From: an uncultured Acidimicrobiia bacterium
Lineage (GTDB): Bacteria; Actinomycetota; Acidimicrobiia; Spongiisociales; JAOTWH01
DNA length: 34,740 nucleotides
Assembly: GCA_964348465.1 (NCBI GenBank)
Contig: CAYGCW010000001.1
Coordinates: 14,336-49,075 of the forward strand
Reading direction: 5' to 3'
Made by a program: the position numbers and the translations under genes. Below are positions 1,210-30,622 of the stretch, one piece after another (position 1 is the stretch's first letter; the number at the start of each line of letters is the position of its first letter). The notes beneath the pieces are model-generated. The model did no database searches, was not told the DNA's origin, and worked only from the letters and a program-made list of their open reading frames with translations.

Positions 1210-1276
1210 CCGGCGACTCTACGGGCCGGACGGCCCAACGGGTAGGCTTCGGGCCGGTCTCCGCATCGGGGGAGCG

Positions 1277-4200
1277 ATGGGACGTGCCTGGTCCGGCCTG
1301 CTGAGGCGCCTCGGAAGCCTGGTCGATTGGGCAGCACGATGGGGCAGGCAGCTGCTGGGGGCCATCTCCTCCGTGGTCGCCCGGCGGCTCGCCGGGCTGC
1401 GCCATCGGGCGTGGCGGGTGACCCGCCGAATCGTTGGGCTGCTCGCGGCACCACCCGGGTCTGTGAGCTCGGAGGTGTGCGGCCCGCCTCCGGATCCCGC
1501 CGCCATCCGCCCGGAGTGCCGCCGCTACCCGGGCGTGGCGGCGATCGTGGTCGTCATGCTGGCCGCCTTCGTGGTTCTCCAGCAGCTCGACGCCCTTCTC
1601 GAGGGCATGCGGACCACCGGCGGCCAGGGCTACGGCATGGGACGGGCGCTCCGGGATCTGCCGGGCGCGTTCGACGCCTGGCAGGAGTGGCACGCAGGAA
1701 ACGAGCGGCTGCTGTCCCCGGGGTGGGTGGTGGGCGCGTACGTGCTCGTCGACACGTTCGCATTCGTTCCCACCGTCACCGCGTTGATCGCCTTCGTCCT
1801 GGTCACGATGGTGCGGCGCATGCGGCCCGGGTGGGCTCGCTCCGGCCCCAGGGTCGAAGCCCGCTACCGGGAGCGGCTCGCCGAGATCCGGCGTCGCAAC
1901 GCTGAGACGGTGGCCGCCAACGACGCCGCCCGGCGCGCCTTCGAAGAGGAGAGTGCGCTGCGGCCCGCCGAGGATCGGCGAGGTCCGCCGCCCGCCGTGC
2001 CGCTCATCCCCGAGCCGCCTTCACCCGACGGCCGATCCCTGGCCGCGTACACCGGGCGGTGGGCGAAGACGCTGCGCTGGACGGCGCCGTTGCTGGTGGT
2101 GTTCTTCCTGACGGACGTCGCAGAGAACCTGCTGTTCGGAATCTCCTATGCCGCAGGGTGGACGGGCCTCGGCTCTCCGATCGGAGTCCTGACCTCCGTC
2201 AAGTGGCTCTCGGTGGGCTTCCTGGCCGCAACGGTGGTCTACGTGCGGGTGGCGGCTCAGCCGGCCGAGTCCCGTCTCGACGGCCGCGGCCTGAGCGAAG
2301 ACGCCCGCGCCGTCTTCAGGGGCCTGGTGGCGATGCGGGTGCCGCTGGTCATCTTCCTCTTGGTGGCCGGAGCGCTGGCGCTGGGCCTGCTCGACCAGAT
2401 CCCGGACGCCATCCGGCGCTGGAGCGTCGTGCAGCTGGCGGCGGCCTTCTACTTCGTCGCCGGCCTCTCGGTGGCGCTGTGGATGTTCGGGCTGTGGGTG
2501 TATCGGCGGGTCACCGAGGGCTTCCGGCGTTACGAGGTGGACGCCCCTGCGGCACTCAAGCTGCGCCGCAGGGTCGGGGCGTCGTTCCTGGCGGCAGCCG
2601 CCGGCCAGACCATCGTGTGGGCGGTCCTTCCCGACCGGGTGGGCCTCGGCCTCCTCGTGCCGGCGGCGATCGTGCTTCTCTTCTTCGTGACGTCGGCGGC
2701 GCTGCCGACGCCAGACCCGCCGGAGGATCCGCCGCCGCCGCGCTGGCCGAGACGGATCATTCCGCACTTCCTGCCTCGGTTCCTGGCTGCGGCGGCCGTG
2801 GGCGCCCTGGGCCTGGCGGCGCTGAACGCCGCCATCCCGACGATGGTCGTGAAGCGAGAGCGCGCGGCCACCACCGCCGCCGTGGTCGGCGACATCATCT
2901 TGCCGGTGCTGCTCATCGTCGCAACGGTCGCCACCGGCCTCTTCGCCGTGGTGAGGTCCCTGCGGGTGGATCCGACGGCGCCGGGTCACCATCGGGCGAG
3001 CACGCAGCACGAGCGGAGGCGGGCGTTCACCGTTCTCCTCGCCCTGGCGGTCGTCCCTCCGGTGGCCCTCTGGACAGCCTGGATGACCGGCCTCGGCGAC
3101 GAACTCCGGGATCTCCCTGCCATCTCGGCCAACTGGCTGCTGCTGGCCGCCACGCTGGCGCTGGTCGCCTCGGCGGCGGCCTACTACCTCTACGACGCGG
3201 ACTACTTCCCGTTGCGGTGGGGCGGCGGCTGGTTCGCAGGCCTGAAGGAGTTCGCCTTCGACAAGTCGCGCGGCGGCCTCGATTGGTCGCGGGAGGCCAA
3301 ACAGCTCGGCTCGGTCTCGGCGGTGGTGTATCTCCTCATGGGGCTCTGGTTGGTGTGGAAGCCGCTCGCAGCGGCGCCGCTGCTGGGCACGGTGGGCGTG
3401 GCGAGCCTATGGGTGACCTCGTTCGCCGCCGTCGCTCTCGTCGCCACGATCTTCGCCGAGCGCACCCGCCCGCCCCGGCTCCTGAGCCACCTGGGGGTGA
3501 ACCGGCTCCCGGTCTTCGCGTTGCTGGCCGTCTGGGTTCTCGCTGCCCAGATTCCCGTCCTGCGGGAGCCGACCTACCACGACGTCCGGATCGCAGCCGC
3601 AGGCGACTTGGCGGCCACGGCTGCCGCCCCGTTCGACGCGCACGCCGGGCAAGTCCCGGGGCTGTGCGACGCGGCGCTGCCGTCCGGCCCCAGCCGCATC
3701 GACATGGAGGATGCTCTGTGCCGGTGGCTGGCGGCCAACGACCTGCTCGACGGCCGGCGCCGCGGCGCCGTTCCGATGGTCTTCGTATCGGCGTGGGGCG
3801 GCGGCATCAGGGCGGGGGCGTGGACCGCTTTGGCGATGGACTGCATCTTCGAGCCGGACGGCTACGTGGAGGCCCCGGCGACCGTCGACGGCACCGCGGT
3901 CGATCTCTGCCGGCGCAACGGCGCCCTGGGCGGCGACCCGTACGAGTTCAGCGACTCGCTGTTCGCCCTCTCGGGGATCTCCGGCGGCTCTCTCGGTTTC
4001 GCCGAGTACGCCGCCTACCTCAGCGGCAAGGAGCACCACGAGATCGCCCCGAAGTGGGTGCGGGCGGCCTTCGGCGCCGACTTCCTGGCTCCCACCGTCA
4101 GCCAGCTCCTCTTCGTCGACGTGCCGCTGAGTCTGTTCGGCTACGTCGACGGGCCCGACGACCGGGCCATTGTGACCGAGCGGGCCTGGGAAGCGGCGTG

Positions 4201-5146
4201 GGCCGGCTCCGGTGCCGATGGCCTGCTCAGACAGGGACTGTTCCGATCCTGGCGGGACAACCGTCACGTGCCGCTGCTGGTCCTCAACGGGACCAGTCAC
4301 ACCGATGCGTGCCGTTTCAACGCGTCGGTCCTCGACGCCGGCGTCGAGGTGGTCGTGGAGGACGACGGCGGCAAGTACATATTCGACGACTGCACGTCGC
4401 TGGACGCTTTCGAGGCGGACTACCGGCCGGCGCCGACCACGCTCGCCGTGCCGCGGGGCGCCTGGGCGCTGGCGCAGACCCGCGATCTCGTCGACTTCCT
4501 GTGCGAGGACCAGGATGTTCGGCTGTCCACGGCGGCGCTGCTCTCGGCGCGGTTTCCGGCAGTCAGCCCGCCGGGTCGGATCGACCGCTGCGCCGGGTCG
4601 GCGCTGCGGCCACCACAAGGAGAGCAGGCCTACGTGACTGATGGAGGCAACCTGGAGCTGTCGGGCACGCTGACCGCGTTTCAGCTCTGGGACGCGGTGG
4701 CGCCGATGATCGAGACGTACAACCGGCATGCGGCAGGTTCGGCGTGCATCGTGCCGTTCATGATCCACCTCGAGAACGGGTACCGGCCACCGGGTGCGCA
4801 GAGCCTCGACCCGTCCCTGCCGAACGAGTGGCTGGCGCCGGCGCGGAGCGACGCCCGGGACGGCCTCGTCAAGAATGCCCGCATCAACGCCGCGCTGCCA
4901 TTCGACGACCCGCTCGGTCTCCCCGGCGGGACCGTGACCGTGGGCGAGGACAAGCCGCGCGAGTTCCGGTACTCGGTCGACCAATACGCGTTCCTCACCA
5001 CCCGCGCCCACCCGGGGGTCCAGGCGCCGTTCGGATGGGCGCTGTCGGAGCAGGCGATCGAGGACCTGGAGAATCAGCTCCTCGAGAACGCCGCGCAGCT
5101 CGCCGAGATAGGGGCCTGGTTCTCCGGCGGCCTCAGCTGCGGCTGA
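1277..5146 (+). CDS. Large polytopic membrane protein with C-terminal patatin-like phospholipase domain
   Basis: This is the in-frame part of track ORF 281..5146. The ORF's 5' part overlaps the TlpA-like gene, so I chose the ATG at 1277 (MGRAWSGLL..), giving 1289 aa. About 770 aa carry many hydrophobic helices. These are followed by patatin blocks: GGGIRAG (3797..3817), nucleophile elbow GISGG (3974..3988), LSARFPAVSPP, and DGG-N (4640..4651). Confidence 0.7.
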   Translation: MGRAWSGLLRRLGSLVDWAARWGRQLLGAISSVVARRLAGLRHRAWRVTRRIVGLLAAPPGSVSSEVCGPPPDPAAIRPECRRYPGVAAIVVVMLAAFVVLQQLDALLEGMRTTGGQGYGMGRALRDLPGAFDAWQEWHAGNERLLSPGWVVGAYVLVDTFAFVPTVTALIAFVLVTMVRRMRPGWARSGPRVEARYRERLAEIRRRNAETVAANDAARRAFEEESALRPAEDRRGPPPAVPLIPEPPSPDGRSLAAYTGRWAKTLRWTAPLLVVFFLTDVAENLLFGISYAAGWTGLGSPIGVLTSVKWLSVGFLAATVVYVRVAAQPAESRLDGRGLSEDARAVFRGLVAMRVPLVIFLLVAGALALGLLDQIPDAIRRWSVVQLAAAFYFVAGLSVALWMFGLWVYRRVTEGFRRYEVDAPAALKLRRRVGASFLAAAAGQTIVWAVLPDRVGLGLLVPAAIVLLFFVTSAALPTPDPPEDPPPPRWPRRIIPHFLPRFLAAAAVGALGLAALNAAIPTMVVKRERAATTAAVVGDIILPVLLIVATVATGLFAVVRSLRVDPTAPGHHRASTQHERRRAFTVLLALAVVPPVALWTAWMTGLGDELRDLPAISANWLLLAATLALVASAAAYYLYDADYFPLRWGGGWFAGLKEFAFDKSRGGLDWSREAKQLGSVSAVVYLLMGLWLVWKPLAAAPLLGTVGVASLWVTSFAAVALVATIFAERTRPPRLLSHLGVNRLPVFALLAVWVLAAQIPVLREPTYHDVRIAAAGDLAATAAAPFDAHAGQVPGLCDAALPSGPSRIDMEDALCRWLAANDLLDGRRRGAVPMVFVSAWGGGIRAGAWTALAMDCIFEPDGYVEAPATVDGTAVDLCRRNGALGGDPYEFSDSLFALSGISGGSLGFAEYAAYLSGKEHHEIAPKWVRAAFGADFLAPTVSQLLFVDVPLSLFGYVDGPDDRAIVTERAWEAAWAGSGADGLLRQGLFRSWRDNRHVPLLVLNGTSHTDACRFNASVLDAGVEVVVEDDGGKYIFDDCTSLDAFEADYRPAPTTLAVPRGAWALAQTRDLVDFLCEDQDVRLSTAALLSARFPAVSPPGRIDRCAGSALRPPQGEQAYVTDGGNLELSGTLTAFQLWDAVAPMIETYNRHAAGSACIVPFMIHLENGYRPPGAQSLDPSLPNEWLAPARSDARDGLVKNARINAALPFDDPLGLPGGTVTVGEDKPREFRYSVDQYAFLTTRAHPGVQAPFGWALSEQAIEDLENQLLENAAQLAEIGAWFSGGLSCG

Positions 5147-12107: not shown

Positions 12108-12175
12108 GTGGTCTGTGGCGCGGCGGCGCCATCTGACGAGATCGCCGCTTCATGCCGTAGCCTCCTGTCCAGGAG

Positions 12176-14293
12176 GTGGCCGTGGACCGGATCGCCGGGA
12201 TCATCGTGAGGCATGCGAGGCGCATCCTGGCCGTGACCGCGGTGATCACGGTTGCCAGCCTGGCGATGCTGCTGCGGATGGACTTCAACGCCGACGTGGC
12301 CTCGTTCGTGCTCGAGGGCAACCCGACGGGAGAGGCGTTCAAGGAGCTTCAAGAGAAGTACGCATCGGCAGACCCCATCAACGTGATCGTGTCGCTGACC
12401 TCCGGGTCGACTTTCGCCGAGCCCGCGGGGTTGGCGGCACTGGCCGAGCTGCGCGACGAGCTCGCTGCCGTGGACGGTGTCGCCGCAGTGGCTTCGGTGG
12501 TTCCCGACGCCAACCCGCTCACCGGTGAGCCGCTGACGCCGGAGACGCTCCGGTCCGCCTCGCCCGAGGTGATCGCCCAGGCGGCCGCCGCCAGCCCGCT
12601 CTCCGGCCTGCTCCTCAGCGAGGACAAACGTCATGCCCTCATGCTCGTCACCCCGGCGGGCGACAGCACCGCGGTGGCGCGCCGGGTGGCGGACGTCACG
12701 GCCCCCACCGGCACCGAGGTCACGCTGTCGGGCAACCCGGTGGTGTTCGCCTCCGTGCTCGACAAGCTCTCGCTGTTCATCCTCGTCATACCGCCGGCGG
12801 TGATGATCCTGCTCGTGCTCACCTTCACCGCCACCATCGGGGACCGGCGGCTGAGCGTGCTGGCGCTGATCCCGGCCGCCCTCGGAGCCATCTGGACCTT
12901 TGGGCTGCTGTTCGCGCTGGGGCGGGAGGTCGACATCGTCACCGTGATCGTGCCGATCTTCGTGATCGTGATGGGCTCGGCGGACGGCCTGCACTTCGTC
13001 ACCCATTTCCAGGAGGAGGCGGCTCACGACGACCCGGTGGCGCGGGTCAGCACGGCGCTCTCCCACGTGGGCGTGCCGATGATCCTCACCACGGTCTCCA
13101 CCGCAGCCGGGTTCCTGTCCCTGGTGGCCACGGGCGTCCAACCGATACAGCAGCTCGGCCTGTTCACCGCCATCGGCATCTCCTTCGCAGGCGTCATCTC
13201 GTTCTTCTCGCTCCCCGCTCTGCTGAGCCGTCTCCACATCGAGCCGCACCATCACCAAGCGCTGATCGGACCCCGGATCACCCGGGCGCTCAAGATGCTG
13301 GTGCGCACGCGGGTGCCTGCCGCCCTGCTCGTCGTGGGACTCGTGGCCTTCGCAGCCGTGTCGCTGCCCCGGCTCGACGTGAACCCCGATCAGCTCTTCT
13401 TCTTCAAACAGGGAGATTCGGTCCGTGCCGCCTTCGAGCGAACGGAGGAGCTGTTCGGCGGAGCCACTCCGCTGATGGGGGAGTTCGCCTACGACCCGAA
13501 CGGCGGGCCGGACCAGCTGGCGGCCATCGCCGCGCTGTCGGAGCGCTTCGAAGCACAGCCCGGCGTGCGGGAGGTCTTCTCGGTGGCGGATCTCGTGGAG
13601 GCCCTGCCGCCCGGCCAAGCCGCCGGCGTGCTCGGCGGCGGTGCCCGGCTTCCGATCGGCGAGATGGTCAGCGGCGACGGCCTGCGCTTCATGCTTCTGC
13701 CGTCGGACTTCTCGACGGCCGATCTCCAGGGGTGGCTCGCGTTCGCCGAGGAAGCGCCGGAGATCCGGGTTCTCACCGGCATGCCGGTGGTGTGGGACGA
13801 GATCGCCCGGCTGGTCCTGGAAGCCCAGGTCGTGTCGCTGTTGGTGGCGTTCGCGCTCGTCACGGCCATGCTGCTGGGCTCCTACCGCCGCCTGCGCCAG
13901 ACGCTCGTCTCGCTCGTTCCGATCGCCCTCACCGTCGCCACCATGCTCGGCTTCATAGCGGTGTCGGGCATCCAGCTCAACCTGCTGACGGCCGTGATTG
14001 GCGGAATCGTGATCGGCGTCGGCATCGACTACGCCATCCACTTCGTGGCGGCCATCGACCACGCCCGGCACAACGGTGCCGGCTACGTGCTGCGGGCCAT
14101 CGACCGCGCCGGCCGACCGATCGTCGCCAATGCTCTCGGGATAGCCGTGGCCCTGAGCGCGTTGTGGCTGTCGCCGCTGGCGATCCACCCGCAGGTGTCG
14201 ATGATCATGTGGGTGGCGATGATCACCGGTGCCCTGACGGCGTTGGTGGTCATCCCGGCGCTGCTGCCGTCCGACGGCGTACGGGAGCGCTGA
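12176..14293 (+). CDS. MMPL/RND-superfamily transporter (two 6-TM halves, SSD-like)
   Basis: 705 aa. The architecture is duplicated: a soluble loop followed by a TM bundle, twice. Typical MMPL blocks are FVIVMGSADGLHF and GIVIGVGIDYAIHF. The AGGAGG at 12171..12176 favours the in-frame GTG at 12182 as the true start. Confidence 0.8.
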   Translation: MAVDRIAGIIVRHARRILAVTAVITVASLAMLLRMDFNADVASFVLEGNPTGEAFKELQEKYASADPINVIVSLTSGSTFAEPAGLAALAELRDELAAVDGVAAVASVVPDANPLTGEPLTPETLRSASPEVIAQAAAASPLSGLLLSEDKRHALMLVTPAGDSTAVARRVADVTAPTGTEVTLSGNPVVFASVLDKLSLFILVIPPAVMILLVLTFTATIGDRRLSVLALIPAALGAIWTFGLLFALGREVDIVTVIVPIFVIVMGSADGLHFVTHFQEEAAHDDPVARVSTALSHVGVPMILTTVSTAAGFLSLVATGVQPIQQLGLFTAIGISFAGVISFFSLPALLSRLHIEPHHHQALIGPRITRALKMLVRTRVPAALLVVGLVAFAAVSLPRLDVNPDQLFFFKQGDSVRAAFERTEELFGGATPLMGEFAYDPNGGPDQLAAIAALSERFEAQPGVREVFSVADLVEALPPGQAAGVLGGGARLPIGEMVSGDGLRFMLLPSDFSTADLQGWLAFAEEAPEIRVLTGMPVVWDEIARLVLEAQVVSLLVAFALVTAMLLGSYRRLRQTLVSLVPIALTVATMLGFIAVSGIQLNLLTAVIGGIVIGVGIDYAIHFVAAIDHARHNGAGYVLRAIDRAGRPIVANALGIAVALSALWLSPLAIHPQVSMIMWVAMITGALTALVVIPALLPSDGVRER

Positions 14294-14326
14294 AAGGACG
14301 GGGTTCGGGACGTTTGCCCCTGGCCG

Positions 14327-14596
14327 ATGGGTGGGGGCTCGGTGGATGATCGGAGCGTGAAGGACGTGCAGCCGCCCCGCCTCCCACCGGGCCGCCAGCT
14401 CTACGATCCACTCAACGGCTTCCGGGTCGGCGGCTTCACCGGGGCCATCGTGGGGACGCTCGCCGCCGTCGCTGCCGGCGTCGCCTACCTGTGGGTGGCG
14501 TTCGCGGGCGCCGCCGTCGGTGGGGCGATCGGCTACTGGTCGGAGCGGCGGAAGCTCCATCGCGTACCGCCGGATGGGAGTGCGGCGCGGCGCTAG
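14327..14596 (+). CDS. Small hypothetical membrane protein (Gly/Ala-rich 2-TM)
   Basis: 89-aa ORF with high GC3. Two hydrophobic Gly-zipper-like segments are present (GGFTGAIVGTLAAVAAGVAYLWVAFAGAAVGGAIGYW). I recognise no homology, and the start is uncertain. Confidence 0.4.
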   Translation: MGGGSVDDRSVKDVQPPRLPPGRQLYDPLNGFRVGGFTGAIVGTLAAVAAGVAYLWVAFAGAAVGGAIGYWSERRKLHRVPPDGSAARR

Positions 14597-14612
14597 CCGG
14601 GGAGGTGGCGCC

Positions 14613-15362
14613 GTGTCCGAGATCATCACCGAGCCGGGCGTGTTCGAGGTCATGTACGGCTGCCGCGCCATGCGCCGGTTGAGCCCGCGTCCGGTGCCCG
14701 ACGAGGTGCTGGTTCGGCTCGTCGAAGCGGGAACGAGGGCCCCCTCGGCCGGCAACGCTCAGAACTGGCGGTTCGTGATCGTCCGGGATCGTGACCGGTT
14801 GGCCGAGATGGCGGGCCCCTGGCGGCGCGGCATCCGCCTCATGCAGGACGTCGCGGCGCGGGCGCCAGCCCGCCCCGGGGAGGACCTCGAAGCTCGTCGC
14901 CGGACGATGCGTGCGGTGGCCTACCTGGCGGAGAACTTCGAGAGCACTCCTGCCGTGATCGGCGTATGCGTGCAGCGCGATGCCGCGGCCGAGGCGGAAG
15001 CTCGCCGTCCGGCGACGCTGCGGTCGGCGATCCGGCATCTGGGATTGTGGGGAACCCTGCGCATGAGCCGGCACGGGCGCCGCAACGCTGAGCGGGAGCT
15101 GCTGGCCAATGCCTACACCGCAGCCCAGAACGTCCTGCTGGCGGCGCGCGCCTCCGGTCTGGGCGCCGTGCTCACGATGCCGCAGGTGCTGGCGCCGCCG
15201 GGGACGTACGAGACGATCCTCGGCCTGCCCGCCGACGTGATCCTGGCCGCGCTCATACCGATCGGTTACCCCCTCGGCGAGTTCGGCCCGGTGGCGCGCG
15301 CCCCGGTCGAGCATTACCTGAGCTGGGACCGCTACGCCCCGGCGCCGGCGCGATCCACCTAG
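14613..15362 (+). CDS. Nitroreductase-family oxidoreductase
   Basis: 249 aa from GTG 14613, with GGAGG 6 nt upstream, inside track ORF 14520..15362. Nitroreductase N-terminal signature is R.MRRL....VP.E.L..L.EA...APSAGN.Q.WRF..V. Confidence 0.8.
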   Translation: MSEIITEPGVFEVMYGCRAMRRLSPRPVPDEVLVRLVEAGTRAPSAGNAQNWRFVIVRDRDRLAEMAGPWRRGIRLMQDVAARAPARPGEDLEARRRTMRAVAYLAENFESTPAVIGVCVQRDAAAEAEARRPATLRSAIRHLGLWGTLRMSRHGRRNAERELLANAYTAAQNVLLAARASGLGAVLTMPQVLAPPGTYETILGLPADVILAALIPIGYPLGEFGPVARAPVEHYLSWDRYAPAPARST

Positions 15363-15432
15363 CGCACGGAGCGGACAGCGATCCGTCGAGTCGGACGGCG
15401 TCCCCCGGAATCGTCGCGCCGCGCCGGCGCCG

Positions 15433-15897
15433 CTATCCGGGCGAGCCCGGGTACCGGTGAGCGGCCGGCAGATCTCGGGTGAGATCGCAGCGGTACCACG
15501 CCGCCGGCCGGTGGGGATGGCCGGTCGTGGCCCAGAAGTCGGCTTCGAACTCGCGCGGCACGTCGTCGATGGTGATCTCGACGTGTGACTTCCCGGCGCC
15601 GGGATCGCCGAGGACCACCACCGGCGACCCGGCGACGGCCAGCATCGCCCGATCCAGCAGCGCCTGGTCCTCATCGCCCTGAGCGGTGACCACGTAGCGA
15701 AGCGTCACTCGTTCGCCGTCGCGGCCTCGATCGCCGCCGGTCGTCGGCCACTCGACGCTGTACAGGTAGACGCTCACCCAGCGGCCCGGCTCGTCGGGCA
15801 GCAGCTCGGGCGTGACCCCGGCGTGGATCCCGGCGGCCGCCAGCTTCCCGCCGATCGTGGCGAGCAGGGCTTCGGTCACGTCTTCGATCCCGGTCAT
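15433..15897 (-). CDS. DUF4255 / Pvc16_N-like protein (Afp16-type tail-tube terminator homologue), short form
   Basis: 154 aa from ATG 15897 (MTGIEDVTEALLATIGGKL..), with ATGA overlap to the tube gene stop. DUF4255-like blocks are VSVYLYSVEW, VTLRYVVTA and FWATTGHPHRPAAWYRCDL. Confidence 0.7.
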   Translation of the reverse strand: MTGIEDVTEALLATIGGKLAAAGIHAGVTPELLPDEPGRWVSVYLYSVEWPTTGGDRGRDGERVTLRYVVTAQGDEDQALLDRAMLAVAGSPVVVLGDPGAGKSHVEITIDDVPREFEADFWATTGHPHRPAAWYRCDLTRDLPAAHRYPGSPG

Positions 15898-16394
15898 GAC
15901 TCCTCCGGCTCCGTTACCGACATGTCCCGCTCCCATCCCTCGTGCTCGAGTTTGATGGACTGAATCGCCACCGCGTTCCCCCCGGCATCGAGGTCGGGGA
16001 GCGCCTGGTACTCCGACACCCAGGCACGACGCACCAGGTAGCGCAGCACGGTCTGGCCCTGGAGGTTCAACAGCTCGATGGCGATGTCCTTCCGGTAATT
16101 CTTGAGCGAGCCGGGCTCACCGGTGCTCGGGTCGAATGCGAGACGGGCCCACTCCTCGAAGACCGGGTCGTGCGTGACGCCGCGCTCCAGCGTGATCGGC
16201 TCGAACCTGGTCGGGCCGGGGGCGGTGCGGTTGGCGGCGGGCTCCGTACCGGTCCGGTATTCGACGGCTTCGGTCATCCGGCGGAGCGCTGACACGTGGG
16301 ATACCCCGGCGACGACCTCGCCGTCGATGATCACCCTGAACCTGCAATTGCGGTACGGGTCGCGGCGGTGGGTATTCACGACGAAGTCGGCCAC
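15894..16394 (-). CDS. Phage T4 gp19 / Afp1-type tail tube protein homologue
   Basis: 166 aa with a GTG start, preceded by GGGGGA. Blocks are YRNCRFRVIIDGEVVAGVSHVSAL....EAVEYRTG......RTAPGPTRFEPITLERGVTHD..FEEW, then RKDIAIELLN.QGQ...RY.VRRAWVSEY.ALPDLDA.GN.VAIQSIKLEHEGWE. This is the pattern of contractile-tail or eCIS tube proteins. Confidence 0.8.
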   Translation of the reverse strand: MADFVVNTHRRDPYRNCRFRVIIDGEVVAGVSHVSALRRMTEAVEYRTGTEPAANRTAPGPTRFEPITLERGVTHDPVFEEWARLAFDPSTGEPGSLKNYRKDIAIELLNLQGQTVLRYLVRRAWVSEYQALPDLDAGGNAVAIQSIKLEHEGWERDMSVTEPEES

Positions 16395-16424
16395 GTTTCC
16401 CCCAATCGTCTGCTGGGTGCAACT

Positions 16425-17171
16425 CTATCGGTCCGGCCGGGCCGCGTAGAGGGCGACGGCCACCGCCGTGGCCAGGTTGAGGCTCGACACACCCGGTCGC
16501 ATCGGGATCGCCACGCGCCGGGCGGCTCGCGCGAGCAGGGCCGGGCTGAGGCCCCGGCGCTCGGACCCGAACGCCAGCACAGCGCGCTCCGGTACCGGGT
16601 CGCGGTCGAACCGCGCGCCTCGCGGGTCGAGGGCCACGATCGGTCGGTCGGTGGCGGCCAGCTCGCCGATGGCTGCGACCGGCACTGCGAAGTGGAGCCC
16701 GGCGGCGCCGCGCACGGCGTTGGGGTGCCACGGGTCGAGTGGTCCGGTGCTCAGCACCCCCGCCGCCGTGGCGGCCGCCGCCACCCGGACGGTGGCGCCG
16801 ACGTTGCCATGGTGAGTGGGGGCCTCCAGCAGCACCACCGGCGCCGGGCCGGGGTCGGCGAGCACCGCAGCCGGGTCGACGGCGGGACGCTCGGCGATGG
16901 CCAGCACTCCGGTGGCCGGCGGGGATGGGGCGAGCCGGGCGAAGACCTCGGGCGCCACGCCGGAGAGGAGCGCCGCGAGCCGTTCGGCCAGGTCGGGCGC
17001 CAGCTCGGCGGCCAGGCCGGCCGGCCCGGTCGGGTCGGCCGCGACCGCCAGCCGGACCACTGCGCCGAAGCGGACGGCGTGCTTGAGAGCGTGGAAGCCT
17101 TCCAGGACGACCAGGCCGGGGTCCGAGCGAGCCGCGGCGAATTCGGCGGGCAGATCCTGCGCGCCCGTCAC
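16425..17171 (-). CDS. SpoU/TrmH-family (SPOUT) RNA 2'-O-methyltransferase
   Basis: 248 aa from GTG 17171, with GTGA overlap to the AAA+ gene stop. All three SPOUT knot motifs are intact: LLEAPTHHGNVGATVRVAAA, LAFGSERRGLS and VAIPMRPGVSSLNLATAVAVALY. Confidence 0.85.
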   Translation of the reverse strand: MTGAQDLPAEFAAARSDPGLVVLEGFHALKHAVRFGAVVRLAVAADPTGPAGLAAELAPDLAERLAALLSGVAPEVFARLAPSPPATGVLAIAERPAVDPAAVLADPGPAPVVLLEAPTHHGNVGATVRVAAAATAAGVLSTGPLDPWHPNAVRGAAGLHFAVPVAAIGELAATDRPIVALDPRGARFDRDPVPERAVLAFGSERRGLSPALLARAARRVAIPMRPGVSSLNLATAVAVALYAARPDR

Positions 17172-19159
17172 CCCTGGCTCGCGTACCGGGCCACGGCGGC
17201 CTCGAAGTCGGCCTTGGTCACCTCGATGGCGCTCGGATCTCGCCGCAGGGCGTTGAGCGCGGCTTCCCGCAGGGCCCCGGTGAGGTCGGCGAAGGAGAGG
17301 CCCGCGGTCTCCTCCGCAACCTCGTCGAGGTCCACGTCCGCGGCGAACGGCACGTCGGTGATGCCGAGGAGCGCCCGGCGGGCTTCGACTGCGGGCAGTC
17401 CCAGCTCCAGGTGCACCTCGAAGCGTCCGGCCCGGAGGAGCGCAGGATCGATGAGGTCGCGGCGGTTGGTGGCGCCGATGATCACGATGTCGCCGCGATC
17501 GGCGACGCCGTCCATCTCCGTCAGCAGCGCCGCCACCACCGAGTCGGTGACCGAAGTCGTGGAACGACCGCGCACCGGAGCGAGCGCGTCCAGTTCGTCG
17601 AAGAACAGGATCGCCGGCGCGGCCGCCCGCGCCCTGGCGAATACCTCCCGCACGCCCCGCTCCGACTCGCCGACGAACTTGTCGAGGAGTTCGGCGCCCT
17701 TCACTGCGAAGAACGCCGCTCCGGACTCGTGGGCCAGAGCCCTGATCACGAACGTCTTGCCGGTGCCGGGCGGGCCGTGGAGGAGGATGCCGCGGGGCGG
17801 GTCGATGCCGAGCCGCTCGAAGCGCCCCGGGTCCGTCATCGGCCAGATCACCGCCTCGGTGAGCCGCTGCTTCACGTCGTCCAGGTTCGCCACCCGCTCG
17901 AATCCGTACGAGGGCACTTCCCCGAGCTGAACCGTCCCCAGCGAAGGCACCGTCTCCTCGACGGCCCTCAGCAGCAGCTCCTGGCCGACGTGGCCGCCGG
18001 AATGAGCGACCAGCGCCGAGGCGTGAACGACCGCCGCCAGGATGTCGGCTCCCGAGAAGCCGGCGGTACGGGCCGCCAGCAGCGCGTAGTCGACCTCGCC
18101 GATGGGGACCCTGGCCAGCGCCGCCTCGAAAAGCAACCCTCGCCGCTCGCCGTCGGGCGGCGGGATCGACAGATGGCGGGGCACCAGCGGCGACGACGTG
18201 ATCGACCGGTCGAGCGCCCCCAGCGACGAGACCCCGAGGACGCAGGCGAGGCGGGGCTTCTCGGCGACGGCGTCGAGGAACCAGCGCAGGATGGCGCCGA
18301 CCTGGGCCCGGAACATGCCCTCTTCCCCGGCCACGGCCTCGAGGCGGTCGACGAAGATCACCCCAGGAGTGGAGGTGGTCTTGAGCGCGCCGTCGAGCAC
18401 GTCGATGAGACGCTCCGGCTTGAACACCAGCCCGAGCGACACTTCCTTGACGGTGGCACCGGCCCCGGAGGCGGCGGCCGCCACCAGCTCCGACTTGCCG
18501 CACCCTGCCGGGCCCTCCATCAGGACCCCGGCGACCGCCGGCAAGCCCCATGCCTTGGGCAGATCGCGGGGCGACGTCAGCAGCGCCAGCCAGCCGGTGA
18601 GCATCTCCAGTTCGTCGTCGAGCCCTGCCAGCAGCGCCTCGGCCTGCGTCGGCGCCACCCGGGCCGGCCGGCCGGGGGCGACTGCTGCCGGCGGCGCCGG
18701 CGCCGTGTCGCCCGGGGCCGACACCACGGTGGCGCTGCCGACCAGCCCGGCCGGGCCGGGCACGACCTCGAGCACCCGCAGCCGCACCGGCCCGTCACCC
18801 TCGCCCACATAGGCCGGGTCGAACTCGACGTGGTCGCCGGGCGTCACCGCCCGGCCCTGGAGAGCCCTGGCCAGGGACTGGGCGTCGGCCGGCAGTTCCT
18901 CGCAGTCGAGCACGATCCGATGCGCCTGGGGAACCATGGCCCGCTTGGCTTCGACCACGTCGCCGTCGCCGACGGCGGCGTTGGCCATCGTCAGCGGTCC
19001 CAGGGTCACGGCGGTGGGTTGGGGCACCTCGCCCGGGTGGACCACAACGTGGGTGCGGCCGATGCTGATCGTTCCGCCCCCGGGCAGGCCCATCGCCGCC
19101 AGCAACGTGGCGTCGGCGCGGGCAAAGGGGTCGAAGCCGGGACGGACGGTGAAGCGCAT
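17168..19159 (-). CDS. Cdc48/VAT-like double-ring AAA+ ATPase (N-D1-D2; Afp15/Pvc15-like or Cpa-like)
   Basis: 663 aa. The N-terminal ~145 aa look like a CDC48_N double-psi barrel (GLPGGGTISIGRTHVVVHPG..VTLGPLTMANAAVGDGDVVE). D1 has Walker A GPAGCGKS (18491..18514) and a degenerate Walker B VIFVDRLE (18338..18361). D2 has Walker A GPPGTGKT (17753..17776), Walker B ILFFDELD (17588..17611), sensor GATN and Arg finger ALLRAGRF. Confidence 0.88.
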   Translation of the reverse strand: MRFTVRPGFDPFARADATLLAAMGLPGGGTISIGRTHVVVHPGEVPQPTAVTLGPLTMANAAVGDGDVVEAKRAMVPQAHRIVLDCEELPADAQSLARALQGRAVTPGDHVEFDPAYVGEGDGPVRLRVLEVVPGPAGLVGSATVVSAPGDTAPAPPAAVAPGRPARVAPTQAEALLAGLDDELEMLTGWLALLTSPRDLPKAWGLPAVAGVLMEGPAGCGKSELVAAAASGAGATVKEVSLGLVFKPERLIDVLDGALKTTSTPGVIFVDRLEAVAGEEGMFRAQVGAILRWFLDAVAEKPRLACVLGVSSLGALDRSITSSPLVPRHLSIPPPDGERRGLLFEAALARVPIGEVDYALLAARTAGFSGADILAAVVHASALVAHSGGHVGQELLLRAVEETVPSLGTVQLGEVPSYGFERVANLDDVKQRLTEAVIWPMTDPGRFERLGIDPPRGILLHGPPGTGKTFVIRALAHESGAAFFAVKGAELLDKFVGESERGVREVFARARAAAPAILFFDELDALAPVRGRSTTSVTDSVVAALLTEMDGVADRGDIVIIGATNRRDLIDPALLRAGRFEVHLELGLPAVEARRALLGITDVPFAADVDLDEVAEETAGLSFADLTGALREAALNALRRDPSAIEVTKADFEAAVARYASQG

Positions 19160-19252: not shown

Positions 19253-20734
19253 TCACGACGCGGCCGGGGGTTCCTCGAGATCGAGATTCTGGGCCTTGAA
19301 GTTGCCCTTGCCGCGCTTACCGTTGATCGCCTCGGTGTTCATGCCGTAGGTGAGCACGGCGGCCGCCACGGCGTCCGAGTTGACGTCGAGCGCCTGCAGG
19401 CTGACGTTGCCCAACGTGTCGCACGCCAGGTGGTAGCAGGGGTCGTACTGTGCTCCGGAGGTGCCTCCCCACGTCGCCGCCTCCGCCGCGGTCTTGATCC
19501 CTTCTGCGCCTGTGAACAGGCCGCCGGCAGGGATGCCGACCTCGATGAACGGTCCGTAGTCGGAGCGACCGGAGAGGTCCGTGCCCTTGAAGGGCAGGCC
19601 GCGAGCGGCGTAGAACGCCTCGAACAGCTTCTCGATGTCGGCCGAACCGGCCGGGCCCGGGCCGGCGCCCACGGCATCGGAGTCGTCGCCGTCGAGGATG
19701 AAGTACACGAAGTTGGGCGAGCCAATCATGTCGAAGTTCAGGTACAGCGCGATCTTGTCACGCTCGGCCTGGCTCAGGTTGGCCACGTAGTGCCGCGAGC
19801 CGACGAGCCCCGACTCCTCGGCGCCCCACCACGCGAAGCGGACCTTGTTCTTCGGCCTCACCTTGGCCATCTGCTCTGCAACCTCCAAGATCGCCGCGCT
19901 CCCCGAACCGTTGTCCTGGATGCCGGGGCCCTGGTTGACCGAGTCGAGATGGGCGCCGGCCATCACGACGTTGGTGGGATCGCCCGCGGTCGATTCGGCG
20001 ATCACGTTGGACGTGGTGGCGATGCCGCGGAAGGTGTCGGTCTCGAGGCGCATGATCAAGCCCGGGGTGGCCGCCAGCTGCTCGCCGAGGTCCTTGGTGA
20101 CGGACGTGACGCCGATGTCCAGAGTGAAGGTGCTGGTCAAGGTGCCGTTGAGCGTGCCCGGGATGTTGTTGTAGATCACCACCCCCGACGCTCCGGCGTT
20201 GAAGGCGTTGGTGGCCTTCGTCGCGAACGTGCACGTCCCGCGGCTGATCAGCGCGATGTTCCCTGCGGGAAAGCCGGCGAAGTCGGCCGGCGAACAGCCC
20301 CGACTGTCGGAAACGGTGCTCACCGGTGCGGTCACGTCGCCGCTTCCCGAGTACTGCATGATGTTGTTGACGAGCGGCCCGGCGGGCGGTGGCGCCACCT
20401 GCTCCAGAACGGCCGGGGTCAGCGAGATGAACGTCTGGAACTGGAACTCCTGCACGGTCACCTGGTACCCGGCCGCCTCCAGCCGCTCTTTCACGTAGGC
20501 CGCCGACCGGTCGTAGCCGACGGTGCCCGACGTGCGGATCCCGTTGCTGGCGTCGGCGATGGCCTGGAACGCCGCCTGGTGCTCGCGCACCCCCTCGATC
20601 GTGACGCATTCGAGAAGCTTGGCAATGGTGTTGTTGACCCTGGTGTCGCAGGCCGCCGGCCCGGCGCTGGCCACTGCCGGGAGGCTCGCCACGACGAACA
20701 CGACGACGAAGAACGCAGCCCTCGCTCTGCGCAT
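19253..20734 (-). CDS. Secreted M28-family aminopeptidase with PA domain
   Basis: 493 aa from ATG 20734 (MRRARAAFFVVVFVVASLPAVASA signal), inside track ORF 19253..20848. M28 metal-ligand blocks are AGAHLDSV, DNGSGSAAILE, WWGAEESGLVGS and NFDMIGS. A PA-like insert is present (NIALISRGTCTF..K..NA.NAGASGVVIYNN). Confidence 0.85.
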   Translation of the reverse strand: MRRARAAFFVVVFVVASLPAVASAGPAACDTRVNNTIAKLLECVTIEGVREHQAAFQAIADASNGIRTSGTVGYDRSAAYVKERLEAAGYQVTVQEFQFQTFISLTPAVLEQVAPPPAGPLVNNIMQYSGSGDVTAPVSTVSDSRGCSPADFAGFPAGNIALISRGTCTFATKATNAFNAGASGVVIYNNIPGTLNGTLTSTFTLDIGVTSVTKDLGEQLAATPGLIMRLETDTFRGIATTSNVIAESTAGDPTNVVMAGAHLDSVNQGPGIQDNGSGSAAILEVAEQMAKVRPKNKVRFAWWGAEESGLVGSRHYVANLSQAERDKIALYLNFDMIGSPNFVYFILDGDDSDAVGAGPGPAGSADIEKLFEAFYAARGLPFKGTDLSGRSDYGPFIEVGIPAGGLFTGAEGIKTAAEAATWGGTSGAQYDPCYHLACDTLGNVSLQALDVNSDAVAAAVLTYGMNTEAINGKRGKGNFKAQNLDLEEPPAAS

Positions 20735-20873
20735 GAGTAAGACCCCCTCGCTCGAACGAACCTGATTGCCGCAGAAAGTAGCGGTAACGGCCCGTCCCGA
20801 ACGGTTCCGAGTTTTCGCGTTTCTCTCCGGCGCCGGAGGGCGCCGCAACGGTACGGCGGGCGCAACCGGCCGG

Positions 20874-26590: not shown

Positions 26591-27475
26591 TCAAGCCGCC
26601 GCGGCGGCGAACAGAATGTCGGCGACTTCCGCCGGGAACGATTCGCCGACGCCGATGAACACTGCGTAGACGGTGCAGTCGTCGATCAGCGTGGCGGCGA
26701 TGTCGATCAGGATCGAGAAGTCCGCCAGCGCCAACGTGAACCGAACGGCGACTTCGGCCCCGGCGATGTCGATCACCTCGACTGCGAACGTCACCCCGTC
26801 GGTGCCTTCGTTCTCGATCGCCTCGGACACCGTGGCGGCCAGGCAATCTCGGCCTTCGGGAGTGCCGAGCACCTTCTGCAACACCGCAAAGGCGTCGCCG
26901 GCGATCTCCCGGCTCTGGAACACGCGAGCCTCGATCGTGGCGTTGGCGGGCCCGAGCACCCCGCTCCCCGGAGGTCCTTCCACGTCGACCTCGGAGGTGG
27001 CCAAGCTGAACGCGTCGAGATTGTCGAGATCGAAGTCGTCCTCGTCGAGACAGGGCGAGAAGACGATGGCGTCGCCCGTGCCGGTGTCCGCGACCAGCGT
27101 CCCTTTCCAACCCTCCGGTACGGCGGCCAGCAGGGCTTCCGCCTTGGCCTCGGCCACCCCCGCGGCACCGGGCTCCCCGCCGGAGGTGGTCGTGGTCGTC
27201 GGCGGCTGGGTGGTGGTAGAAGAAGTGGTCGGCGGCGTTGTGGTGGTGGTCGGCGGCTGCGTGGTGGTGGTCGGCGGGTGGGTGGTGGTCGGGGCCGCCA
27301 CGGTGGTGGCCGGACTCGTATCCGGCGGCGGCACGATCGACGTGCCATCCCGGGGCGCGGTGGTCGTGGTCGCCTCCCCGGAGTCGCCGCAGGCGGTGCT
27401 CAGCAAGCAGAGCGCCAGCAGTGCGGCGGCGACGCGGGCCGGGGGTGGGATAGGCATGGGGACGACTCTACGCAT
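26591..27475 (-). CDS. Hypothetical lipoprotein with long Thr/Pro linker
   Basis: 294 aa with lipobox CLLSTAC. About 60 aa of (P)PTTTT repeats precede a ~190-aa acidic domain with no homology I recognise. An alternative start is ATG 27457 (MPIPPP..). Confidence 0.7.
   Translation of the reverse strand: MRRVVPMPIPPPARVAAALLALCLLSTACGDSGEATTTTAPRDGTSIVPPPDTSPATTVAAPTTTHPPTTTTQPPTTTTTPPTTSSTTTQPPTTTTTSGGEPGAAGVAEAKAEALLAAVPEGWKGTLVADTGTGDAIVFSPCLDEDDFDLDNLDAFSLATSEVDVEGPPGSGVLGPANATIEARVFQSREIAGDAFAVLQKVLGTPEGRDCLAATVSEAIENEGTDGVTFAVEVIDIAGAEVAVRFTLALADFSILIDIAATLIDDCTVYAVFIGVGESFPAEVADILFAAAAA
27182..27373 (-). repeat. Coding low-complexity Thr/Pro repeat (GGTGGTGGTCGGCGG-type units on the + strand)
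   Basis: Imperfect ~15-nt units encode PPTTTT(T/Q) inside the lipoprotein linker. Confidence 0.8.
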
Positions 27476-28268
27476 CGCGCCCGGCGGCTCGGGGATTGCG
27501 CTGCCGGACGGCTTCGAACAACAGGAGAGCGGCAGCCACCGACGCGTTGAGACTGGCCACCGGCCCTGGGGTGGGGATCACGACGGTCCGCTCCGGATCG
27601 GCGAGCCAACCTGGCGACAACCCGGACTGCTCACTGCCGACGACGACCGCCGCGGCCGCGGTCAGGTCGGCGTCCCAGTACGGCCGGCGCCCGTGAACGG
27701 ACGCGGCGTGCCACCCGACGCCGGCCTCGTCGAGGAAGGACCTCACGGAAGTGGGCGCGGCGACGGCGACGGGCAGCAGGAACAGCGCCCCGAGCGACGC
27801 GCGCACCACGTTCGGGTTGAACACGTCGGCGACCGGGTTCGCCACGACCACTCCGCCGGCGCCGGCGGCGGCCGCGGTGCGCAGCATCGCGCCCAAGTTG
27901 CCGGGTTTCTCGACGGCCTCCGCCACGAGCAGCAGCGGTGCTCCGGCGAGCGCGATCCGGTCGAGGCCGAGCGGGAACTGGCGCGCCACCGCCAGCACCC
28001 CCGTCGCGGCATCCCGGTACGACGCTTTCGCGAAGGCAGCCTCGCTCATCTCGAAGCCGGCGGTCTCCGTCTCGGCGGCCGCGGCGGCGCCGGCCGTTCC
28101 CGAGTAGTAGACCTCCGCGATCTCGATCCCGCCGGCGACCGCCCGCGCCAGCTCCCGCTCGCCTTCGATGACGAATGAGCCGGTGTCGTCCCGCTCCCGG
28201 CGGCTGGTGCGCAGCCGTACCAAAGCCTTGACACGCGGATTGGCCGGCGACGAGATCGGAGCGCTCAC
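27468..28268 (-). CDS. SpoU/TrmH-family RNA methyltransferase (second copy in the window)
   Basis: 266 aa from GTG 28268, with GTGA overlap to the TPM gene stop. N-terminal NPRVKALVRLR....R...G.FVIEGERE is present. SPOUT motifs are AVEKPGNLGAMLRTAAAAG, VVVGSEQSGLS and VVIPTPGPVASLNASVAAALLLFE. Confidence 0.85.
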   Translation of the reverse strand: MSAPISSPANPRVKALVRLRTSRRERDDTGSFVIEGERELARAVAGGIEIAEVYYSGTAGAAAAAETETAGFEMSEAAFAKASYRDAATGVLAVARQFPLGLDRIALAGAPLLLVAEAVEKPGNLGAMLRTAAAAGAGGVVVANPVADVFNPNVVRASLGALFLLPVAVAAPTSVRSFLDEAGVGWHAASVHGRRPYWDADLTAAAAVVVGSEQSGLSPGWLADPERTVVIPTPGPVASLNASVAAALLLFEAVRQRNPRAAGRDA

Positions 28269-30622
28269 CAGCCGGAGCCGCCGCCGCCACCGCCGAAGCC
28301 GCCGCCGCCCCCGAAGCCCCCGAAGCTGCCGCCGCCGAAGCCTCCGCCCCACGACGATCCGCCCCCGCCGCCGCCGAAGCCGCCCCCGCCCCCGAAGCCG
28401 CCGAACCCCCGCGAGCCTCCCCACCACGAGTCCCGGTCGTTGGACCAGGAATGGTCCCGGTAGATGGGCTCCCAGCCGTAGCTGCCGCCGTGTCCCCTGG
28501 TGATGACCCAGTGGTAGAAGAGCAAGGTGAACGGGTCGAACGAGCGCAGCGCGGTCGGGAGGCGCTGGCCCGTCCAGGTGTCGGTCTGGCGCCGGGTGCC
28601 TTCATGGGCCAGCTCGGGAGCGAAGCGGTCGGCGTCGTCGATGGCCGACTCGGCGAGCGCCTCCCGGGTGGCGGCGTAAGACAGCGCGAAGCGACGCGGC
28701 CCGCGCGGATCGCTGGCGCCGAAGGCCGCGGCGACGTCGGCATACGCCCCTTCGAGCCCGAGCTCGGCGAGCGCCGCCCTGGCTTCTTGCCATCGCCGCA
28801 CGGCCTGGGCTGGTTCCAGGGAGATGGCGAGCAGCGCTGCGATGGTCTTGCGAGACTCGGCGCCGGGCACCGTCGCCGCCAGCTCCCTCTGGAGCGCCTC
28901 GTAGACTTCGGGGCCGTCGTCACGCCGGCGCAGCAGCGCCGCGGTGATCGACACCGGCAGCCCGAGCCGTCGGGCCTCCCGGCGCACCACCTCCACCTCG
29001 CCGCGGTCTCGCAGACCGGCGAGAGCGAACTCCACGGCCTCGTCCGGAGCGAAGTTGCGGGCGCGGTTGGCTCGGTAGGCGTCGAGGAACTCGCCGATCT
29101 CGCCCTCGTCGCGGTTCATCAGCAACAGCGCCGCGATGGCGGGGATCGACAGGCCGTCGCTCTCCAGCACCGATCCCTCCTGCTCCAGTGTGCGCCGCAC
29201 CGCCTCGTACCGGTCGGCAGCCGAGTCGGGGTCGTCTTCGACGTCGGCCAGGGCGGCGGCGACCGCGGGCCGGGCGGTGGTCGACGGCAACTGCTTGTAG
29301 AGCCGGTCGAGCACGTCGGTCTTGGCGCGGGCAGTCAGGTACGCCGCATCCAGCTCCGCGACCGACTCCGAAAGAGGTTGCTCGGCGTCGAGGGCGGGGC
29401 CGGCCCGCAGCATCCGCTGTCCGCGGTCGGTGATCGCCGCAGGCCCGATCGGTGTCTCGACGAGGGACGCCGCCAAGGCCACCCCGGCCCGGCGGCGGGC
29501 GGCGGCCACCCGGTGCGGGCGCAGCGCCGCGACCACCGTGCCCAGCTCGCCGAGCTTCACCTCGAACGTCTCGAAGCCGGTCACCGGCGCGGCGAGGCAT
29601 TCGCGCGCCGTGGCCTGAACGGACTCCTCGAGGATCGCCCGCTCGTCGGCGACCCGCAGCTCGAGGGGCACCGCCGTGGCCGCCTCGAGGCGGTCCCGGT
29701 CGATCACCAGGATGGCGCCGGCGCCCCACAGCGCCGCGGCGGCGTCGGCCGCGGGCGGCGATCCGTCCGCAACGGCCCGCAGCGCAGCGAGCGCGGCCGC
29801 CGTCGGGACGTCCGGCCCCGGGGGACGCTCGGCGGCGAAGTCCTCGAGTCGGGGCAGCTCGTGGCCGGCGACGTCGAGCCGGCCGAGGACGTCGTCGACG
29901 AGCCGTTCCCGGCGGCTCGCCTTGCGTTCGCGGCGCTTGCGCTCGGCGGCCACCCCGCCGATGACGGCGCCCACGACGCCGGCGCCGAGGAGAACGACGA
30001 GCGCGCCGCCTCCCGGCGCCGCGTCGGGTTCCCGCGCCGTCGGCTGCGTCACGGCGGGGGCGACCGGGCCGGAGGTGGCCGGCGGCGCGTCCGTGGTGGA
30101 CGGGCCGCCGTCGGGGAGACTTCCGAGCCAGGCGTCGAGGCTGCCGAGGATGGCGGTCAGGCCGGCGTCGTAATCGCCCCTTCCGAAGAACGAGTTCCCA
30201 GCGGCGGCGACTTCGTCGAGCCCGGCGTCGGGGAGACCGGGGCCTACCCTGATCTCGGTGCGCCGCTCCGCGAGCGCCACGAGCACCACGATGCCGTCCT
30301 GGCGTTCGGCATCGCCCACCCCCCAGGTGTTGCCGAGATCGTCGGCATACTCCACGGGCTCGCGGCCCCCGGTGGTCGGGATGACGACGACGGCGATCTG
30401 GGTCCCGTGGCGAGCCACGACGGTGCCGGCGGTCTCCTCGACGGCGGCTGCGTCGGCAAGCACGCCGGCCACGTCGGTCACCCAGCCCGCGCAGGTGTAC
30501 CCGTCGAACTCGGGACAGAGCGCCAGCTCCTCCGGCGCCTCCTCCTGGGCGAACGCCGGCGGCGCCGCCAGCAGCAGCAGCAGCAGCAACGCGCCGGTCA
30601 GGAGCGAGATCAGGGCCCTCAT
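28265..30622 (-). CDS. Large TPM-domain membrane protein with ~500-aa helical cytoplasmic region and Gly-rich C-terminal tail
   Basis: 785 aa. It has a signal peptide (LLLLLLLAAPPAFA) and a TPM/TLP18.3-like block (VTDVAGVL....E......H..QIAVV.I....G......A..L...WGVG....DGIV.LVA...R...I.VG.G). One TM follows (ALVVLLGAGVVGAVIGGVAA), then a long Ala/Arg/Glu-rich region. The tail reads GGFGGGGGFGGGGGGSSWGGGFGGG...GGGSGW, typical of TPM/YgcG-type proteins. Confidence 0.75.
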   Translation of the reverse strand: MRALISLLTGALLLLLLLAAPPAFAQEEAPEELALCPEFDGYTCAGWVTDVAGVLADAAAVEETAGTVVARHGTQIAVVVIPTTGGREPVEYADDLGNTWGVGDAERQDGIVVLVALAERRTEIRVGPGLPDAGLDEVAAAGNSFFGRGDYDAGLTAILGSLDAWLGSLPDGGPSTTDAPPATSGPVAPAVTQPTAREPDAAPGGGALVVLLGAGVVGAVIGGVAAERKRRERKASRRERLVDDVLGRLDVAGHELPRLEDFAAERPPGPDVPTAAALAALRAVADGSPPAADAAAALWGAGAILVIDRDRLEAATAVPLELRVADERAILEESVQATARECLAAPVTGFETFEVKLGELGTVVAALRPHRVAAARRRAGVALAASLVETPIGPAAITDRGQRMLRAGPALDAEQPLSESVAELDAAYLTARAKTDVLDRLYKQLPSTTARPAVAAALADVEDDPDSAADRYEAVRRTLEQEGSVLESDGLSIPAIAALLLMNRDEGEIGEFLDAYRANRARNFAPDEAVEFALAGLRDRGEVEVVRREARRLGLPVSITAALLRRRDDGPEVYEALQRELAATVPGAESRKTIAALLAISLEPAQAVRRWQEARAALAELGLEGAYADVAAAFGASDPRGPRRFALSYAATREALAESAIDDADRFAPELAHEGTRRQTDTWTGQRLPTALRSFDPFTLLFYHWVITRGHGGSYGWEPIYRDHSWSNDRDSWWGGSRGFGGFGGGGGFGGGGGGSSWGGGFGGGSFGGFGGGGGFGGGGGGSGW
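28268..28429 (-). repeat. Coding GCC/GCCGCC-rich low complexity (Gly/Phe/Ser/Trp tail)
   Basis: The last 54 codons of the TPM protein are almost all GGN plus Phe, Ser and Trp. Confidence 0.8.
30569..30586 (-). repeat. (CAG)6 / (CTG)6 perfect trinucleotide run encoding the poly-Leu core of the TPM protein signal peptide
   Basis: The six perfect cag units at 30569..30586 can be read directly from the sequence. Confidence 0.9.

Follow-up and report, generated by a model that had tools for sequence, protein, structure and literature searches.

The window (the whole 34,740-nt stretch of DNA analyzed) carries a gene for a SpoU/TrmH-family RNA 2'-O-methyltransferase between a Cdc48/VAT-like ATPase gene and an orphan tail-tube gene. 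We hold with considerable confidence that its product is a cellular rRNA-type 2'-O-methyltransferase, probably co-transcribed with its neighbors and functionally independent of them. The protein would be an active, dimer-type, SAM-dependent RNA ribose 2'-O-methyltransferase that combines a putative L30e-like RNA-binding N-domain with a predicted knotted SPOUT C-domain, and it most likely methylates a single nucleotide in the 23S rRNA of its own cell. Its gene sits in a variable block that separates the core ATPase gene from the his operon, beside a presumably stranded tube gene and a truncated cap-like gene. Adjacency to the ATPase and tube genes would thus amount to co-location and putative co-transcription in one lineage rather than to a role in a contractile injection system (CIS). 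The features concerned are as follows.

12108..17167, strand unspecified: variable block from hisA to the ATPase gene, missing in two collinear relatives (L162 and L164)
15433..15897, minus strand: Pvc16_N/DUF4255-like ("cap-like") gene, 154 aa, weak PF14065 match
15894..16394, minus strand: orphan T4-gp19-type tail-tube gene, 166 aa, PF06841 E 2e-39 and TIGR02241 E 2e-40
16425..17171, minus strand: SpoU/TrmH-family RNA 2'-O-methyltransferase gene, 248 aa, assigned from PF00588, family-invariant residues, the AF2 model and fold matches
17168..19159, minus strand: VAT/p97/Cdc48-like double-ring AAA+ ATPase gene, 663 aa, assigned from NCBIfam CDC48, CDC48_2, PDB matches and orthologue synteny

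Results

An intact SpoU methyltransferase gene

The original prediction of a SPOUT methyltransferase at 16425-17171 is borne out by the SpoU_methylase profile PF00588, which matches residues 112-242 (E 8e-26; 91.3 bits, cut-off 29.7). The match takes in positions 3-142 of the 142 in the profile and places the protein within this family. Translation of the minus strand yields 248 codons with no internal stops, and independent gene callers picked the same 248-aa product and the same start on two other near-identical public contigs. Its homologues are 244-255 aa long and cover 91-100% of the protein in alignments. Its GTG start (17171-17169) and the TGA stop of the ATPase gene (17170-17168) overlap as GTGA, in the reading GGG GTG ACG, as had been predicted.

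All three SpoU motifs are intact: N123, G125 and R129 in motif 1 (N-x-G-x-x-x-R); G202, E204 and G207 in motif 2 (G-x-E-x-x-G); and I222-P223-M224...S229-S230-L231-N232 in motif 3 (I-P-M...S-L-N). An alignment with 36 relatives, in which all 62 of the 62 family-invariant columns are kept, motif residues included, confirms the earlier claim of intact motifs. In the same alignment the N-terminus is collinear, with no extension relative to non-CIS homologues; consequently, the protein offers no candidate N-terminal packaging signal. PADLOC and PHROG searches with the methyltransferase gave no match, and PADLOC assigned neither it nor the tube or cap-like gene to a defense system. A promoter and terminator scan of 15.2-19.5 kb returned nothing, such a scan being uninformative at the 72% G+C of the window.

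A two-domain fold resembling 23S rRNA methyltransferases

The AF2 model of the methyltransferase (pLDDT 93.7, pTM 0.90) comprises an L30e-like N-terminal domain (approximately residues 1-105) and a SPOUT catalytic domain (approximately 110-245). Foldseek aligned this model over its full length to AviRb, RlmR, NHR, RlmP and RlmB with TM values of 0.72-0.81. The alignments span 244-270 columns for the 248-aa model and include the N-domain, establishing the two-domain architecture, and the SPOUT fold, with its presumed knot, is recognized from these matches to knotted SpoU structures. Tsr is also among the fold matches. By sequence, the closest solved structures are Thermus thermophilus RlmR (4x3l, 9h1k), RrmA, Bacillus subtilis RlmP, AviRb, MRM3 and NHR, and PF08032 (SpoU_sub_bind) is annotated on some homologues.

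Enzymes of the RlmR, RlmP, RlmB, AviRb and NHR groups are dimeric, with an L30e-like N-domain and a SpoU C-domain, and each 2'-O-methylates a single 23S rRNA nucleotide, namely Um2552, Gm2553, Gm2251, Um2479 or Am1067 (PMC12123411). Likeness to these enzymes in both sequence and fold suggests that the window protein is a 23S rRNA 2'-O-methyltransferase as well. No NCBIfam equivalog cut-off was reached: the RlmB model TIGR00186 scored 44.4 bits against 160.15, the second-best family, NshR/TsnR (NF000477), 42.1 bits against 425, and the TrmH tRNA Gm18 model NF008295 27 bits against 227, the last matching motif 3 only.

Relatives of the methyltransferase in a fixed neighborhood

The protein database holds thousands of homologues of the methyltransferase, the best of them 59-68% identical. 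They are mostly annotated as "TrmH family RNA methyltransferase", and the named organisms are Solirubrobacterales. At least 402 loci in species-level genomes encode a relative. The neighborhood survey covered the best 80 of these at least 402 loci (56-65% identity, mostly Solirubrobacterales), with flanks of up to 8 kb, shorter at contig ends, that were searched by tblastn with the window genes. Homologues of the window ATPase, tube, Pvc16-like, nitroreductase, MMPL, M28, DnaQ-GIY-YIG and hisA genes were found in the flanks of none of the 80.

These relatives have a neighborhood of their own. Among the 63 loci with full flanks, an unnamed 434-aa gene was present in 58, the acetyl-CoA synthetase gene Acs in 57, PBP1 in 43 and a multicopper oxidase gene in 37. 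Such a fixed neighborhood is typical of a housekeeping-type gene that is inherited vertically. The orthologous family, which is without a characterized member, is present in nearly all Solirubrobacterales at a fixed syntenic position and occurs sporadically in other groups.

A maximum-likelihood tree placed the window methyltransferase outside the Thermoleophilia clade (77 rows, SH-aLRT 96), not within it, and a recent transfer from Solirubrobacterales was rejected on this ground. Placement among the SpoU enzymes, proposed with the original prediction as a check, yielded a likeness to the two-domain 23S rRNA type and a position outside that clade, but no named equivalog. The neighbors of the window protein in the tree are labeled Acidimicrobiia (L079), Geminicoccaceae (L069) and Longimicrobiales (L027). 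The gene is flanked in L079 by genes for an SDR and a solute-binding protein, and in L069 by those for an MscS-type channel, a ribonuclease and a chemoreceptor. No CIS genes lie beside it in the long flanks of these two loci; L027 is a 1.1-kb contig without flanks.

A variable block in an ordinary chromosomal region

Pfam scans gave the gene order hisIE, hisH, hisC, hisG, hisA, MMPL transporter, nitroreductase, cap-like gene, tube, methyltransferase, ATPase, M28 peptidase, DnaQ-GIY-YIG protein, PGA_cap, DUF3160, a second SpoU methyltransferase, a TPM-domain protein, HIT and APH. The window is thus an ordinary chromosomal his-operon region. Among the scanned ORFs of the entire window, Pfam detected no sheath (PF04984), baseplate, spike or tape-measure genes. 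The methyltransferase gene does lie between an AAA+ ATPase gene and a tube gene, as originally stated, but the CIS locus that this position implied is missing.

Two further features of the region were recorded. The second SpoU gene (27468-28427, minus strand, 319 aa) encodes an MRM3-like substrate-binding domain (PF22435 together with PF00588) and is the likely housekeeping enzyme of RlmB/RlmP type in this genome. At the opposite end, a plus-strand frame at 2-5143 (1714 codons, 5' end open) has a coding-like GC3 of 0.88 and no Pfam match at E 1e-4; it represents either a very large uncharacterized protein or a high-GC artifact.

In L162 and L164, which are collinear with the window by tblastx, the ATPase gene is followed directly by a convergent hisA, with hisG and hisD/C beyond it. 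Since the ATPase gene abuts hisA there, the 12.1-17.2 kb segment of the window is a variable insert beside a conserved ATPase gene. It contains the MMPL transporter gene, a small ORF, and the nitroreductase, Pvc16_N-like, tube and methyltransferase genes. Direct and inverted repeats flanking the block were GC-rich chance matches only, with no mobile-element signature.

The four-gene arrangement of cap-like, tube, methyltransferase and ATPase genes was found only in near-identical DNA, namely contigs L182 and L183 (99.5-99.9% identity). Additionally, the methyltransferase-tube junction is present on one sediment metagenome contig of approximately 96% identity. Contigs from sediment and marine metagenomes that matched 11-21 kb were short, low-depth pieces only, and the apparent joints in them were discarded as noise, with sides of at most 66 letters and most below 50. 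Metagenome and protein searches with the cap-like protein revealed no more distant copy of the arrangement. Retention of the same-strand four-gene unit, with its 4-nt overlap and 30-nt gap, in near-identical strains counts against functional independence. This tight spacing is the sole evidence for a functional link between the methyltransferase and its neighbors, and it is confined to one lineage.

The upstream gene encodes a core Cdc48/VAT-like ATPase

The ATPase matches the NCBIfam CDC48 subfamily (E 9e-93, 312 bits, under the model cut-off of 803 bits) and has a CDC48_2 N-domain match. In the PDB it matches VAT (5g4g, E 2e-127) and Mycobacterium smegmatis Msm0858 (5e7p, E 2e-84), and its PADLOC matches are to generic AAA proteins. 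The closest relatives in species-level genomes are full-length, 55-81% identical and encoded in eight MAGs, of which seven are labeled as Acidimicrobiia or as one of its orders or families and the eighth as Actinomycetota only. In these MAGs the gene neighbors hisA and the his operon or the DnaQ-GIY-YIG gene. Homologues of the methyltransferase, tube and Pvc16 genes are absent from all eight loci.

In L161 and L163, the ATPase gene follows the DnaQ-GIY-YIG gene as it does in the window, but without the M28 peptidase gene; in the window, an M28/PA-domain aminopeptidase gene (19253-20848, minus strand) lies between the two. The flanks of the ATPase gene are accordingly variable on both sides, M28 being missing at the matching position in these two loci. 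Downstream of the ATPase gene are OsmC, sortase and sigma factor genes in L161, cyclophilin, PAP2 and PPDK genes in L163, and DnaJ and RF3 genes in L165. Alignment to the ATPase of a genuine eCIS locus, L117, gave only 34% identity over 145 aa of one AAA core. Given this limited similarity, its VAT/Cdc48-like character and its core synteny, the window ATPase is a core chromosomal gene product and not a CIS-type (Afp15/Pvc15/Cis15-like) ATPase. It may be the counterpart, in Acidimicrobiia, of mycobacterial Msm0858.

The tube and cap-like genes resemble a stranded remnant

The tube ORF, which begins 30 nt after the methyltransferase stop, is intact, and its stop is overlapped by the ATG of the cap-like gene (ATGA). 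The cap-like protein scores 25.2 bits with PF14065, under the cut-off of 27, and has 154 aa against approximately 440 aa in canonical loci. Its only homologue among 5.8 billion proteins was itself, and in JGI metagenomes only its own contig was recovered. In L182, a public metagenome contig from the same strain, 59 nt are missing near the 3' end of the tube gene (L182:1933-1942, corresponding to window 15962-16030). This loss fuses the tube and cap-like ORFs into one encoding a 300-aa product and may be either a strain variant or an assembly artifact.

The best relatives of the tube protein are 55-63% identical and come from many phyla. Canonical eCIS clusters with a sheath gene directly upstream of the tube gene account for 76 of the 80 tube-homologue loci. 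The canonical order is sheath, tube, a baseplate-like gene, a Pvc16-type gene where detected (443 aa in L117) and a single-ring ATPase gene. A SpoU gene was present in none of the 80. The four sheath-less loci are L092, L094, L157 and the short L114. Stand-alone tube genes with no CIS neighbor were observed in a Pseudomonadota MAG (L092:4668-5216) and in the MAG of an uncultured actinobacterium, where urease and malate dehydrogenase genes flank the tube gene (L094:9959-10522), so orphan tubes recur. The longest terminal branches of the tube tree (1.15, 0.85, 0.53 and 0.39, against a median of 0.05) are those of the window tube, which has the longest of all, and of the L092, L094 and L157 tubes. 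This pattern suggests that constraint was relaxed or altered once the partners (sheath, baseplate) were lost, and that these tubes decayed or changed function. The most plausible interpretation of the tube and cap-like genes is that they are stranded remains of an eCIS locus, possibly exapted, and not an apparatus.

Discussion

The original prediction offered three roles for the methyltransferase: a payload, a self-protection or regulatory enzyme, or a passenger housekeeping gene. The evidence favors the passenger housekeeping gene, and membership in a CIS or tail-like locus is unsupported. The linkage of orthologues to the ATPase or tube gene that had been proposed as a check failed to appear, with no case among the best 80 methyltransferase loci, the 8 ATPase loci or the 80 tube loci. 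Housekeeping-type orthologues, together with adjacency to the ATPase gene in one lineage, constitute the outcome that the prediction itself had named as refuting it, and this is essentially what was found.

Several other explanations merit consideration. The enzyme could be an accessory, resistance-type rRNA methyltransferase of the AviRb, Tsr or NHR kind, gained with the MMPL transporter and the nitroreductase and shielding the ribosome from a thiopeptide- or orthosomycin-like antibiotic. AviRb is indeed the top fold match, NHR and Tsr are matched as well, NshR/TsnR ranks second among the NCBIfam families, and a transporter and a nitroreductase gene accompany the methyltransferase gene in a block that relatives lack. 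However, the NshR/TsnR score of 42 bits falls far below the cut-off of 425, no biosynthetic cluster lies nearby, and the family is fixed beside housekeeping genes in dozens of Solirubrobacterales genomes, a distribution that better fits a constitutive rRNA modification enzyme; we therefore regard a resistance function as unlikely. Alternatively, the methyltransferase could act together with the Cdc48/VAT-like ATPase, perhaps in quality control or in the assembly of ribosomes; the translational coupling suggested by the GTGA stop/start overlap would then reflect a stoichiometric pairing. The PDB matches of the window ATPase include Rix7 and Afg2, two eukaryotic Cdc48-like AAA proteins that function in ribosome biogenesis. 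Nevertheless, a SpoU gene is adjacent in none of the 8 ATPase orthologue loci and the ATPase gene occurs in none of the 80 methyltransferase loci, so the pairing is confined to one lineage, which makes this partnership more improbable still.

The remaining explanations invoke the tube. The ATPase, methyltransferase, orphan tube and cap-like protein could together form a sheath-less tube module, an exapted CIS remnant with a new cargo, in which the unfoldase loads, or the tube carries, the methyltransferase; we consider this very improbable. Least probable of all is a CIS or tail-like apparatus assembled from the ATPase, tube and cap, for which the methyltransferase would serve as payload, self-protection factor or regulator. 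The methyltransferase gene does lie, tightly spaced, between the ATPase and tube genes and shares their strand, and the tube ORF is intact. Against such an apparatus stand the absence of sheath, baseplate, spike and tape-measure genes from the window, an ATPase that is not of CIS type, and the absence of SpoU genes from the 80 tube loci, 76 of which are canonical eCIS clusters. Furthermore, the methyltransferase shows no additional N-terminal region for packaging, the truncated cap-like gene has a sub-threshold Pfam score and lacks relatives, and the window tube shows the accelerated divergence seen in other orphan tubes. For an eCIS payload in particular, the result was negative on both counts, with no CIS-gene linkage in the 160 loci of relatives (80 methyltransferase and 80 tube) and no N-terminal packaging extension.

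A cellular rRNA methyltransferase has little consequence for CIS biology, in that a "methyltransferase inside a CIS locus" amounts to three adjacent genes read as one system. Its modest value lies elsewhere: its SpoU family, which has relatives encoded in at least 402 species-level genomes and no characterized member, may act at a new rRNA 2'-O-methylation site in Actinomycetota. The locus also calls for caution in annotation, as VAT/Cdc48-like ATPases encoded beside orphan tube genes are not to be annotated as CIS ATPases.

Comparison with known systems

With eCIS of the Afp, PVC and Streptomyces CIS types, the window shares a tube gene of the sheath-following type and a weakly Pvc16_N-like gene adjoining the methyltransferase gene. 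In contrast to these systems, it lacks genes for a sheath, a baseplate, a spike and a CIS-type ATPase, and a SpoU gene occurs in no described or sampled eCIS locus. The literature on SPOUT enzymes retrieved by our search likewise nowhere mentions contractile injection systems.

The closer parallels are individual rRNA methyltransferases. RlmR of Thermus thermophilus (TTC1712/TTHA0275; PDB 4X3L, 9H1K, 9MUK), the 23S Um2552 2'-O-methyltransferase (PMC12123411), is the top sequence match among solved structures (E 4e-13) and shares the L30e-like N-terminal domain, the SpoU SPOUT C-terminal domain, a full-length TM of 0.76-0.80 and the residues of motifs 1-3. However, its identity to the window methyltransferase is just 27-28%, and orthology is not supported. 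AviRb of Streptomyces viridochromogenes (23S Um2479, avilamycin resistance; PDB 1X7O/1X7P) ranks first among the Foldseek matches (E 8e-19, TM 0.77) and shares both domains. It differs in showing 27% identity and in being encoded within an antibiotic biosynthetic cluster, whereas the window family occurs mostly in housekeeping neighborhoods. RlmB, RlmP/YsgA and MRM3, which are 23S Gm2251 and Gm2553 2'-O-methyltransferases, have the SpoU subfamily architecture and the dimer-type fold in common with the window protein. The distance from RlmB is evident in the TIGR00186 score (44 bits against 160), and the second SpoU gene at 27468-28427 is the better candidate for an RlmB/RlmP/MRM3-type role.
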